A DNA stretch of 64,000 nt from Chitinophagaceae bacterium (GTDB taxonomy: Bacteria > Bacteroidota > Bacteroidia > Chitinophagales > Chitinophagaceae), in NCBI GenBank assembly GCA_009996675.1, contig JAACZQ010000005.1, forward strand, positions 7,948-71,947, in the 5' to 3' direction. The notes beneath the pieces are model-generated. The model saw only the letters and a list, made by a program, of their open reading frames with translations. It was not told where the DNA came from and made no database searches. Of the stretch, positions 39,203 to 51,658 are shown piece by piece; positions within the stretch are counted from its first letter, which is position 1; every line of letters starts with the position of its first letter. A program made the translations under genes and the position numbers.

Positions 39203-40516
39203 TTAAGAAAAGAGGCTATTTAATGTACGAATTCGTTTGAACATAACATTATCAGCGTCTTCATGATTATCAAACCTAATATCTATATTCTTCGCTTCGA
39301 TGATAATATCTTCTGCTAACATTATTGATGGAACTTCAAATACTGCATTTTCAGCATTTATCTTCGATTCAGGATATAGTAGTAAAAGATTATTACAATT
39401 TCGCCTGATAGCATATCCAATCATTTGATATAAATCAGTCTGAGACACACCTTTTTTTAAACCATCGTTGTTTGAGCGAATTTTATACTTGATATCAATT
39501 ATCAACTTATCGGGAATGTAGATGTCATTACGAATTTGAAAAACAGAAGAACCTTTGCTGAGAGCAAGATAATCGGTACTCTGACTTCTGATGTTTAATG
39601 CTGGCCACTTATCAGATACAAAACCAAAAATGAAATCCTCAAAAATGTACTCCATCGGCAGCAAAAAGCAGAAATTGTTGCTGTCCTCATCTTCCAAATC
39701 AATAACCTGATTCGACAGGTACAACCTGCACAGATCCAATATGTGTTTATGTTCGGCAAACAAAGGATTCAGTTTGACTTTATCACAATCATTTGCAGAG
39801 CAAGGAATGTCCGAAACGTCATTCAGGATAAAAAGAATCTCGTTTAAGCGTTCTTGATTCAGATAGTTTTCGCTGACGGCAAGCAAACGCTTTGTAACGT
39901 ACTTTACTATCTGATTGAAAAGATTATCGTAAACAAACGGTTCATGGTTGCAAAAGAAATTCTGCCATTTGCCGGTTGTAAGGTTGTTTTTGGTGTACTC
40001 CTCATATGAAATACGCCCTTTTAAAAACGGGCTTTCTTCACCTACCGTTTGGTATGCCTGAAAAGGCTGATTGGAAATAACGTCTTCGGTAAAATTGGCA
40101 AAAATGTAAATGAGCAGTTCCAGAAAGTCATCGAATTGCAGCTTAGAAACATCGGCAAATGAAAAAGGAAACTTCACCTTCCGGCAATAAGAAAGCCAAT
40201 ACAACATGTTAAGTTGCCACTGCTTTGTATTTTCTGCTTCATCATCTGCAAATATTTTGGGATACACTTCAACACGGATTCCATCATATTGTACTACGCC
40301 CACATAGTTTCTTGCAGAGATTTTGCCATCTACCGTAAAATCAAAAAACCGCTGCCGTTGTATTTTCTCCGCCTGCTGTTCTTCCTCTGTTAGTTCTTCG
40401 GTTGATTCGACATACCGATTCCTGTTTTGCCAAACACCAGATAGGTAATTGACAAATTCCGGTAGCTTTGATTGATGGCCGGCAAAAGAATCGCTATGCC
40501 ACTCGAATAACCTCAC
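39203..40516 (-). CDS. mcrC: McrC-family PD-(D/E)xK nuclease subunit
   Basis: ARNYVGVVQ...EVYPKI, MEYIFEDF, IIDIKYK and DLYQMIGYA motifs; GTG start overlapping the mcrB stop. Confidence 0.9.
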   Translation of the reverse strand: MRLFEWHSDSFAGHQSKLPEFVNYLSGVWQNRNRYVESTEELTEEEQQAEKIQRQRFFDFTVDGKISARNYVGVVQYDGIRVEVYPKIFADDEAENTKQWQLNMLYWLSYCRKVKFPFSFADVSKLQFDDFLELLIYIFANFTEDVISNQPFQAYQTVGEESPFLKGRISYEEYTKNNLTTGKWQNFFCNHEPFVYDNLFNQIVKYVTKRLLAVSENYLNQERLNEILFILNDVSDIPCSANDCDKVKLNPLFAEHKHILDLCRLYLSNQVIDLEDEDSNNFCFLLPMEYIFEDFIFGFVSDKWPALNIRSQSTDYLALSKGSSVFQIRNDIYIPDKLIIDIKYKIRSNNDGLKKGVSQTDLYQMIGYAIRRNCNNLLLLYPESKINAENAVFEVPSIMLAEDIIIEAKNIDIRFDNHEDADNVMFKRIRTLNSLFS

Positions 40517-49666: not shown

Positions 49667-51658
49667 TTATGAAATTATATCGTTTAATAAACCCTCGGTT
49701 TCCCTTTCCAGCTGCATAATCTCCTCTGTGATGGCAGCCACACTTCGTAATGGCTGATAGCGATAGAAAATTTTGGTAAAGGATACTTCATAACCTTTAA
49801 CCGTTTTGGAGTGGTCAATCCATGCATCAGGCACAAAGGGCCACACTTCCTTTTCAAAATACTCCTGCACATTTTGCTTTACAGGAACACTCTCGTAATC
49901 CCGCAATTCAGGGTCGGCTTCATAAATCACTTCGTCTTTGTTCTGCTTTTTGATAACAGGTTTGGCTTCTCCATCACGCCATGACAAAGCATCTAAAAAT
50001 GTTTTCTTCTCTTTTGGCTTCCACGTCAATGACAACTTCTTTAGCTGTGTATCTAATGCAGACAATAGTTGATTGAAGTCGTTTTGAACAGCAGTGCCAA
50101 ACTGCTTTTGCAATGTTTTGAGTACCGGCAAATAGTAATCTGTATCCTCCATTGCAGATAGCTTTTCTTCTGTTAGCTGCCATGCCAAACGCAAAGGCCG
50201 TTCTACCGTAATACTCCAATAGGCAAAGTCATCGTTTTCAAAAATTCTGCTGATTTCGTTTTGTTGAAAATCTTTAAATGCATCTGCAATTTGTTGGATA
50301 TGGGTTTCCGTCAATTCATTTGACTTGCTGCCTAAACCCTTTCGCATTTTGCTGTAGATACCAGAGGCATCAATCAGTTGAACTTTACCTTTTCTTCTTT
50401 CCTCTTTTTTGTTACTCAACACCCATATATACGTTGCGATGCCAGTGTTATAAAACATATCATTGGGCAACTGAATGATTGCTTCGAGTAAATCGTTTTC
50501 AATGATGTACTTTCTGATTTCGCTTTCACCACCTCCTGCTTCACCTGTAAACAATGACGAGCCGTTATGTACGGAAGCAATTCGACTGCCTATTTCGCTA
50601 TCGGCCTTCATTTTGGAGACCATGTTCATCAAGAACAGTAACTGGCCATCACTAACTCTTGGCACTCCAACACTAAAGCGACTATCAAGAATCTCTTTTG
50701 TCTTTGAATCAACAATGCTGTCCTGGTCAACCTTCCATGTTTTACCATAAGGTGGGTTAGACAGCATAAAGTCAAACTTTAGCTTGGGGAAGCCATCATT
50801 TGACAATGTAGAACCAAAAGCAATTTTCTCCGGGTCTTCTTCTTTAATGAGCATATCTGCTTTGCAGATTGCAAATGTTTCAGGGTTCACTTCCTGACCG
50901 TATAAATGGTAGGTTGCTTTGGGATTTATTTCCAATGCAAAATGTTCTGCTTCCGTAAGCATACCACCACTACCACAAGCAGGGTCATAAATGAGATAAG
51001 TACCTTGTTTGATTTTATTTTTGACGGGTTCAAAAATGAGATGGGTCATCAACTTAATGATTTCCCTTGGTGTGAAGTGTTCACCAGCTTCTTCGTTGTT
51101 TTCTTCATTGAACTTGCGAATAAGCTCCTCAAAAACATATCCCATTCCCAGATTACTCAATCCTTCATGCACAATGTTTCCATCCTTATCTTTCACCGCT
51201 ACCGGACTAAGGTTGATTTGAAAAGAACAGAATTTTTCAATCAATGGAAAAGTGATATTGCCTTCTTCAAGCGTATCCAACTGATTACGCAATTTGAATT
51301 TGCTAATGATGTCCTGCACATCTGAACTAAAGCCATCCAGATAATTTTCAAGGTTCTGCCGAATGTTTGCAGGGTCATTCAGTAACTTCTTGAAAGTGTA
51401 CTTAGAAGTGTTGTAAAAAACGTATCCTGATACCTTTCTTAGCTGTGGTGACTGATTTTCGATTTTCAACTTATTGAGTTGCTCATGCATTTCAATCACC
51501 TTGTCTTTTGAAGGCTCCAGCAAAGCATCCAACCTGCGCAATACCGTGAATGGCAGAATTATGTCTCTGTATTTGCCTCGGGTGTAAACGTCACGAAGCA
51601 CATCATCGGCAATGCCCCAGATAAAGTTGACAATTTGATTATGTTGGATATGGTTCAT
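49667..51658 (-). CDS. hsdM: Type I restriction enzyme methyltransferase (m6A)
   Basis: IWGIADDVLR N-domain; GEHFTPR, YDPACGSGGML and SNPPY motifs. Confidence 0.96.
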   Translation of the reverse strand: MNHIQHNQIVNFIWGIADDVLRDVYTRGKYRDIILPFTVLRRLDALLEPSKDKVIEMHEQLNKLKIENQSPQLRKVSGYVFYNTSKYTFKKLLNDPANIRQNLENYLDGFSSDVQDIISKFKLRNQLDTLEEGNITFPLIEKFCSFQINLSPVAVKDKDGNIVHEGLSNLGMGYVFEELIRKFNEENNEEAGEHFTPREIIKLMTHLIFEPVKNKIKQGTYLIYDPACGSGGMLTEAEHFALEINPKATYHLYGQEVNPETFAICKADMLIKEEDPEKIAFGSTLSNDGFPKLKFDFMLSNPPYGKTWKVDQDSIVDSKTKEILDSRFSVGVPRVSDGQLLFLMNMVSKMKADSEIGSRIASVHNGSSLFTGEAGGGESEIRKYIIENDLLEAIIQLPNDMFYNTGIATYIWVLSNKKEERRKGKVQLIDASGIYSKMRKGLGSKSNELTETHIQQIADAFKDFQQNEISRIFENDDFAYWSITVERPLRLAWQLTEEKLSAMEDTDYYLPVLKTLQKQFGTAVQNDFNQLLSALDTQLKKLSLTWKPKEKKTFLDALSWRDGEAKPVIKKQNKDEVIYEADPELRDYESVPVKQNVQEYFEKEVWPFVPDAWIDHSKTVKGYEVSFTKIFYRYQPLRSVAAITEEIMQLERETEGLLNDIIS

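Follow-up and report, generated by a model that had tools for sequence, protein, structure and literature searches.

Septu systems consist of an ABC ATPase, PtuA, and an HNH nuclease, PtuB, and anti-phage activity dependent on the ATPase and HNH motifs has been shown for Escherichia coli and Bacillus homologues. The pair is found as the stand-alone Septu type I (Doron 2018; PDB 8EE4, 8EE7 and 8EEA) and in type I-A retrons (Ec78/Eco7 and Ec83). The stand-alone E. coli Septu (Ec-B88) is self-sufficient in defense and requires its Walker and HNH motifs, and tRNA-Tyr is cleaved (PMC13096335). DNA nicking by stand-alone PtuAB drops as ATP rises, and a pair of PtuA C-terminal extensions (CTEs) clamps the C-terminal domain (CTD) of PtuB (PMC12819146). 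According to the same paper, retron PtuA has gained extra elements that are missing from the stand-alone form, its features being an N-terminal extension and an msDNA-binding helical flap, and the PtuAB heterocomplex of Ec78 is cytotoxic, "unlike the stand-alone PtuAB". In this study, we analyzed a ptuAB pair located inside a Type I restriction-modification (RM) operon of a Chitinophagaceae bacterium (assembly GCA_009996675.1, contig JAACZQ010000005.1, positions 7,948 to 71,947), with attention to its class, genomic context and evolution. The window, to which all coordinates refer unless another locus is named, is the whole analyzed stretch of 64,000 nucleotides (nt).

Embedded genes are frequent in Type I RM, BREX, DISARM and Hma systems, and 96.7% of them are co-oriented with the host system (Payne, Hughes, Fineran and Jackson, bioRxiv 10.1101/2024.01.29.577857). 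PrrC is almost always embedded, and the same authors discuss backup in the manner of PrrC as well as ABC-ATPase systems that Ocr or Stp sets off. In the portion of that work accessible to us, Septu is named as embedded in Hma and not explicitly in Type I RM, and the accessible text of its supplementary tables holds no Septu or PDLC entries. For RM-linked sensing of anti-restriction proteins, experimental precedents exist in Ronin and EcoR22I. PrrC/EcoprrI and Ronin (HsdMS with RonA) are similar to the locus described here in that an effector gene lies within an hsd locus, and PrrC likewise has an ABC-type ATPase head. In the Type I RM system of enteropathogenic E. coli, DarTG2 is carried between hsdS and hsdR (PMC12255303), whereas the ptuAB of the window lies between hsdM and hsdS.

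A total of seven open reading frames (ORFs) on the minus strand, in the order hsdM-ptuA-ptuB-hsdS-hsdR-mcrB-mcrC, were confirmed from the ORF list and by reading the sequences (lengths in amino acids, aa):

49667..51658, minus strand: hsdM, Type I methyltransferase, 663 aa (PADLOC MTase_I PDLC03029, 899 bits, residues 1-662; Pfam HsdM_N and N6_Mtase).
48345..49664, minus strand: ptuA, Septu ABC ATPase, 439 aa (PADLOC PDLC00278, 442 bits, residues 1-436; PDB 8ee4, E=1.7e-54).
47626..48348, minus strand: ptuB, Septu HNH nuclease, 240 aa (PADLOC PDLC00315, 217 bits; Pfam HNH, E=2.4e-6).
46359..47618, minus strand: hsdS, Type I specificity subunit with two target-recognition domains, 419 aa (full-length PADLOC Specificity_I; Pfam Methylase_S).
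43369..46356, minus strand: hsdR, Type I restriction/translocase subunit, 995 aa (Pfam HSDR_N, SWI2_SNF2, ResIII and T1R_D3-like; TIGR00348, 235 bits).
40513..43353, minus strand: McrB-like Type IV GTPase subunit, 946 aa (Pfam EVE 379-501 and AAA_5 687-848; NCBIfam McrB, 112 bits, partial).
39203..40516, minus strand: mcrC, Type IV nuclease subunit, 437 aa (Pfam McrBC PF10117, 221 bits; its GTG start overlaps the mcrB stop).

The six junctions are, in this order, a 2-nt gap, a 4-nt overlap, a 7-nt gap, a 2-nt gap, a 15-nt gap and a 4-nt overlap. Gene order and junctions agree exactly with a preliminary description of this DNA, whose gene identities were likewise borne out by PADLOC, Pfam and NCBIfam profiles. 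The gene spacing also upholds the operon-like packing noted there and is the reason for reading the block as an operon; terminator-like sites are not enriched within the region (10 found, 12.2 expected from shuffled sequence). The locus is probably best explained as an autonomous Septu cassette of the stand-alone type, seated in an hsd operon that acts as a cargo hotspot and transcribed together with the Type I and Type IV systems as a layered defense.

The class of the PtuAB pair was determined by comparison with stand-alone and retron homologues. Window PtuA aligns to the stand-alone E. coli PtuA (PDB 8ee4) over residues 1-398 at E=1.7e-54, whereas the retron Ec78 and Ec83 PtuAs align to it only over parts of residues ~184-432, and its N-terminal ~180 residues have no counterpart in any retron PtuA compared. 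The PADLOC Septu models exceed the retron type I-A models for both proteins (PtuA, 442 versus 223 bits for the ATPase; PtuB, 217 versus 46 bits), so that the retron models score about half or less, and NF041760 gives PtuA 203 bits against a cut-off of 500 bits. The pair shares with type I-A retrons a homologous ATPase core, an HNH partner and the CTE-CTD docking logic, but it differs in the length of PtuA (439 versus about 550 aa) and in having no adjacent reverse transcriptase (RT) or msr-msd. In the alignment to 8ee4, the Walker A motif (GDNAKGKT, G30-T37), the signature LSDG, Walker B (D298/E299) and H330 of PtuA are intact. PtuB is encoded immediately downstream, the two genes overlapping by 4 nt at stop and start; its C37xxC40, E50-H51, N67 and C72xxC75-N76 are invariant among 9 homologues, and a sequence search returned no PDB match for it. 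The two-gene architecture, protein sizes, intact motifs and start/stop overlap are those of stand-alone Septu type I, from which the window pair differs in lying inside a Type I RM operon. Judged from these features, the window PtuAB is predicted to be of the stand-alone Septu type. The preliminary description had suggested that the retron's role of guarding a toxic PtuAB may have passed to the Type I enzyme; because the pair is of the stand-alone type and the published stand-alone pair needs no antitoxin, a replacement guard does not have to be assumed.

Residues ~213-240 of PtuB (window 47626-47710; NCFDPANGYxPIxRNPxNxADPI) and the matching 85 nt are conserved across alleles that are otherwise ~31% identical. 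These last ~25 residues may have a function of their own as a tail, or may serve as an anchor for recombination at the edge of the cassette.

The preliminary description had reported no retron, and this stands at the level of the whole genome (166 contigs, 95% complete), which holds one hsdMSR and one ptuAB by tblastn. The 64-kb window has no RT, and its only Rfam matches are two tRNAs. The single RVT_1 match in the genome lies on a contig (C2) other than that of the island; among PADLOC models a generic RT fits it best, and against retron models it scores no more than ~45 bits. Upstream of this RT of 370 aa lies an 87-nt repeat that has two further copies in the locus. Most of the differences fall on A positions of the RT-proximal copy, as expected of the template and variable repeats of a diversity-generating retroelement (DGR). 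A retron elsewhere in the genome was therefore rejected as a candidate, the sole RT being that of the DGR. The DGR spans L067:653-6729 (G000:C2, about 36650-42730), with its template repeat at L067:5463-5549, variable copies at L067:653-739 and 5280-5366, and two small upstream ORFs of 129 and 131 aa.

For the hsd backbone, 401 genomes sampled evenly from the same order were examined; 52 of them contain the HsdM family, and 20 related hsd loci were fetched. None of the 20 has ptuAB between hsdM and hsdS. Extra DNA of at least 1 kb lies between hsd genes in 12 of them, with the extra ORFs co-oriented with the operon. Seven of these gaps were annotated, and the cargo found in them includes GajA/GajB of Gabija (871/361 bits), NsnA/NsnB, TmtA (826 bits), PDC-M38A (988 bits) and the GmrSD-like HEC-06/Orf5. 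L047 is a compact hsdMSR whose HsdM is 73% identical to that of the window. These loci show that this hsd operon family is a cargo site for varied defense cassettes across genomes. The window locus resembles the embedded defense of Payne et al. in all of these respects: a known defense cassette lies on the same strand between the genes of a hotspot operon, and the backbone also occurs without PtuAB or with other cargo.

Three alleles of the island were compared by nucleotide alignment and extended fetches (identities to the window in brackets; MAG, metagenome-assembled genome):

Window: tRNA-Phe-hsdM-ptuA-ptuB-hsdS-hsdR-mcrB-mcrC.
L119, Ferruginibacter MAG, beginning inside ptuA: ptuA-ptuB (89%)-DpdF-like helicase (1502 aa)-orf212-hsdS' (37%)-hsdR (98.6%)-mcrB (93%)-mcrC (86%).
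L122/L123, Chitinophagaceae MAG, first part: tRNA-Phe (94.7%)-hsdM (93%)-ptuA (70%)-ptuB' (31%)-DpdF-like helicase-orf212-hsdS'' (35%)-hsdR (95%).

After hsdR, L122/L123 carries a convergent EVE-McrB/McrC pair that differs from that of the window. In both sister alleles the DpdF-like helicase cassette takes up precisely the interval from the ptuB stop to the hsdS start, and at the nucleotide level the window hsdS resembles theirs in short conserved regions only. HsdM and HsdR are thus nearly constant, and everything between them, together with the Type IV module, is exchanged among alleles. PtuA-tail/PtuB alleles that are 21-31% identical replace each other within an HsdM/HsdR frame that is 93-99% constant, which makes a specific PtuAB-Hsd interface hard to reconcile with the data. 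The helicase cassette itself (L119:1440-6590 and L010:10053-15203) consists of a 1502-aa DpdF/PsyrT-like DEAD helicase and a 212-aa ORF, possibly an uncharacterized defense pair, and the window genome holds a 32%-identical helicase paralogue at G000:C2:482-4702.

Identity profiles in 40-residue bins revealed that PtuA is composed of two parts with different relatives. The head (residues 1 to ~335, about 48660-49664) is 72-95% identical to those of L010, L002 and L003, and the tail, or CTE (residues ~336-439, 48345 to about 48659), is only 20-32% identical to the same loci. Conversely, the tail is 85-98% identical to L005/L119, and against L005, L007 and L119 together the tail reaches 62-98% and the head 12-52%. 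PtuB goes with the tail (81-89% to L005/L119, 31% to L010). In separate trees the window head groups with L010/L002/L003 (support 100/100) and the tail with L005 (93/89), and a nucleotide breakpoint lies in ptuA at about 48655. By these comparisons PtuA is a recombinant, with its ATPase head from one lineage and its CTE, together with PtuB, from another. A second case was found in L012 and L015, which are 94.5% identical at the nucleotide level up to position 9058, show no similarity across the ptuA tail and ptuB, and align again at 90.5% identity beyond; the L012 tail groups with L003. This is a second, independent swap at the same head/tail boundary. Since the boundary coincides with the published interface between the PtuA CTE and the PtuB CTD, ATPase heads and nuclease modules are units that can be exchanged.

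A pattern scan with one genome per species gave 15 loci with PtuA relatives, of which L004 and L011 are truncated, leaving 13 informative loci. Six of the 13 (L002, L003, L006, L007, L009 and L016) are stand-alone amid housekeeping genes, and the stand-alone PtuAs of L002 and L003 are 70% identical to that of the window. The window island is shared by L010 (HsdM 93%) and L008/L119 (in which HsdM is not covered, the locus starting inside ptuA), with HsdR 95-99% identical. Four further loci, L012-L015, have the order hsdM (58%)-ptuAB (about 30%)-hsdS-ABC ATPase-hsdR (55%), so that the placing of ptuAB between hsdM and hsdS, directly or with further genes before hsdS, is not the one-off that the preliminary description had considered as a refutation, occurring also in L010, L119 and L012-L015. 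The element that carries the L012-L015 composite also encodes a tyrosine integrase, HTH proteins of the excisionase type and a DUF3987 protein; the composite is 93-95% identical at the nucleotide level between Algoriphagus and Sediminibacterium, which indicates that it moves as a unit between orders. In L005, ptuAB lies between a Type III res and an SNF2 helicase gene, with mod upstream, and carries the same tail/PtuB module as the window. In the head tree, the PtuAs embedded in Type I systems form two distinct clades with good support, each with stand-alone or differently embedded close kin, and the embedding of PtuAB has been gained or lost more than once.

Two of these loci have further features of their own. 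At L014:326-17239 and in L015, hsdM-ptuAB-hsdS-ABC ATPase (967 aa)-hsdR lies on an integrase/HTH_17/DUF6617/DUF3987 element; the hosts are Algoriphagus boritolerans and Sediminibacterium salmoneum, recent inter-order transfer is indicated, and the region of the 967-aa ATPase differs between them. L005:83-13927 has Mod, a UvrD-like protein and Res upstream of ptuAB and an SNF2/DrmD-like helicase and DUF4391 downstream, resembling the EcoR22I-type mod-res-SNF2 layout.

In the order sample, a PtuA threshold of E<=1e-25 gave 17 positive genomes with 20 PtuA loci: one embedded (the window), one beside hsdR and 18 without a nearby hsd gene. The locus beside hsdR, in G370, follows directly after that gene and is the only hsd-adjacent one among the 19 outside the window genome. 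Genome G250 is a natural case of PtuAB unlinked from a related hsd backbone: on contig C11, amid housekeeping genes, it carries a PtuAB with 89%/76% identity to the embedded L010 pair, and on a separate contig, C23, a compact hsdM-hsdS-hsdR (HsdM 73% over its full length and HsdR 70% identical to the window). PtuA is 425-442 aa long in embedded and stand-alone contexts alike, at 70-89% identity. Within family f11, 4/9 of the PtuA-positive genomes have the HsdM backbone, no higher a share than the 15/33 found overall. This PtuA clade, being mostly free-standing, thus does not display the obligate hsd linkage of PrrC, which is almost always embedded, or of RonA, which is always hsdMS-linked.

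The Type I and Type IV genes of the window appear complete. The hsdM, hsdS (with two target-recognition domains) and hsdR genes are intact, full-length and without stops in one locus. HsdM has no added domain, its full-length architecture being common to the PtuAB-free operon at 73% identity, and ordinary full-length models match HsdS with no extra domain. HsdR is 95-99% identical in L123 and L119, and McrC is 86% identical in L119. The Type IV module has a McrB AAA+ protein (AAA_5) with an EVE reader domain and McrC as the next ORF, from which GTPase and cleavage activities are predicted. Residues 1-378 of the McrB-like protein (42220-43353) match no Pfam or NCBIfam family; a protein-atlas search with this N-terminus gave scores below 0.8, with weak leads to further EVE/DUF8426-like reader domains, and L066 holds a 37%-identical counterpart of the region.

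The seven genes form most of a 13-kb low-GC defense island beside tRNA-Phe, with a GC content of 36-42% over most of the block and 44-51% in the flanks. The features at its ends are:

52138..52211, minus strand: tRNA-Phe (GAA) (ARAGORN; Rfam 69.5 bits); the island starts just past its 3' end.
52102..52126, minus strand: terminator-like hairpin of the tRNA-Phe gene, a 10-bp stem followed by a T run.
51659..52101, minus strand: AT-rich operon leader and presumed promoter region (GC 0.36; sequence read).
38541..39202, no strand assigned: distal end of the island, without coding sequence and with GC climbing back to the flank level.

The synteny of tRNA-Phe and the aminoacyl-tRNA synthetase gene is held in congeners, and the sequence beyond the tRNA varies; in sister allele L010 the 94.7%-identical tRNA-Phe sits directly upstream of hsdM. 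Because the left-flank genes do not occur beside tRNA-Phe in three congeners, the distal boundary is fixed by GC content and ORFs only. An integrase-mediated island with att repeats was considered and rejected, since no repeat of at least 14 nt of the tRNA-Phe 3' end was found in 30001-52000, a span that includes the distal end, and none of the three island alleles has an integrase. The leader presumably holds the operon promoter: a TAnnTTTG word (Bacteroidota -7-like) is present at 51777-51784, and the full two-box pattern TTTG-N17-23-TAnnTTTG has no match in the leader. Between tRNA-Phe and the synthetase gene (about 52450-52515), a ~30-nt sequence resembles a small dispersed repeat, copies of which, 89-97% identical, lie on ~10 other contigs of the same genome (C7, C9, C23, C27, C31, C38, C42, C74, C118 and C149).

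If the PtuAB pair is an autonomous cassette within a layered defense, all seven genes would be expressed from one transcript. HsdM2S would methylate host DNA and HsdR would cut unmodified invading DNA, and McrBC would sense modified bases via its EVE domain and cut modified phage DNA. PtuAB would assemble by itself, the paired PtuA CTEs clamping the PtuB CTD, and would be self-restrained like the published stand-alone Septu, in which ATP lowers nicking; upon infection it would cut tRNA(Tyr) or nick DNA. Through embedding, the genes would be regulated together and transferred horizontally together, and no guard at the protein level would be involved; recombination at the PtuA head/tail boundary would re-pair ATPase heads with nuclease modules. 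These results support the layered Type I, Septu and Type IV logic of the preliminary description. Several observations weigh against the autonomous cassette. All 16 other PtuA-positive genomes of the order sample carry some hsdS, so that an interaction in trans is possible. PtuAB lies directly after hsdM in 7/7 Type I-embedded cases from two PtuA clades, and the other identified cargo of this backbone, unlike PtuAB, lies between hsdS and hsdR. This positional regularity is not explained by pure chance insertion, yet it is not significant with two or three independent events. As to co-transcription, metatranscriptome contigs span the hsdM-ptuA junction (94% identity) and the ptuA-ptuB junction (91%); they are weakly consistent with a common transcript and may stem from DNA carry-over, and they come from relatives at 91-94% identity, none of the RNA runs having this locus's own DNA.

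The guard proposed in the preliminary description, in which HsdM/S(/R) would bind and silence PtuAB in place of RT-msDNA until phage Type I inhibitors free the nuclease, has the precedents of PrrC/EcoprrI and Ronin HsdMS-RonA and is in keeping with the tight same-strand packing between hsdM and hsdS and with the recurrence of the hsdM-ptuAB-hsdS order in several genomes. Several lines nevertheless argue against such a physical guard, which we regard as very unlikely: PtuA of the stand-alone type has no added domain relative to its free-standing kin, HsdM and HsdS have none either, the locus lacks a dedicated docking domain, backbones without PtuAB exist, divergent PtuA-tail/PtuB alleles are swapped in a constant HsdM/HsdR frame, the clade is mostly free-standing, unlike PrrC, and stand-alone PtuAB is reported to be non-cytotoxic (PMC12819146). 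In this respect the guard is unsupported, and overall the observation made in the preliminary description is confirmed and its interpretation partly supported. Backup without physical coupling was also considered, in which an autonomous PtuAB would directly sense a phage anti-restriction factor such as an Ocr/ArdA-like DNA mimic, as PARIS and Gabija do, and selection would seat Septu in RM operons. Anti-defense proteins do repeatedly trigger ABC-ATPase systems (Ocr for PARIS and Gabija, Stp for PrrC and PARIS; bioRxiv 10.1101/2024.01.29.577857), relatives of the cassette are embedded in Type I as well as in Type III RM and one (L063) adjoins hsdR, and the trigger of stand-alone Septu is unsettled in the literature, a candidate tail sheath having been tested and rejected (PMC13096335) and a tail fiber being cited (PMC12819146). 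Against this, 18 of the 20 order-sample loci are not beside an RM system of this family, no anti-restriction protein is among the published Septu triggers, and RM genes are the commonest defense genes, so that chance co-location is expected, in a slot that also takes unrelated cargo; we consider this backup distinctly improbable. A related speculation, rather improbable in our view, is that Septu cassettes act as anti-anti-restriction sensors when lodged in a restriction operon, of Type I in the window and of Type III in L005. Their PtuA heads would recognize Ocr/ArdA-like inhibitors directly or via HsdM2S, in which case the recurrent position between hsdM and hsdS and the frequent re-pairing of heads and modules would reflect an arms race over the trigger. 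Finally, the pair might be a passenger or decaying insert, recently and selfishly inserted and with no present role in defense, as could be thought from the mosaic structure and recent recombination of the island; but neither ORF is broken, every catalytic motif is kept, the ptuA/ptuB start/stop overlap is preserved, the homologues in sister alleles are intact and related RNA-library contigs cover the ptuA and ptuB genes, so that a mere passenger is extremely unlikely.

The layout follows the published embedded-defense pattern, and the idea of a guard or a backup has in its general form already been published (Payne et al.; Ronin, EcoR22I). If true, either idea would supply a class of trigger for Septu and carry the logic of PrrC/Ronin over to an effector of two proteins. 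The locus provides a clean and well-bounded example of nested defense in an environmental Bacteroidota genome, and its three natural alleles, differing by whole cassettes, are useful for the study of how defense islands are rebuilt by recombination. The clearest addition is the chimerism of PtuA, the two independent swaps showing that the head and the unit of CTE and PtuB are interchangeable.

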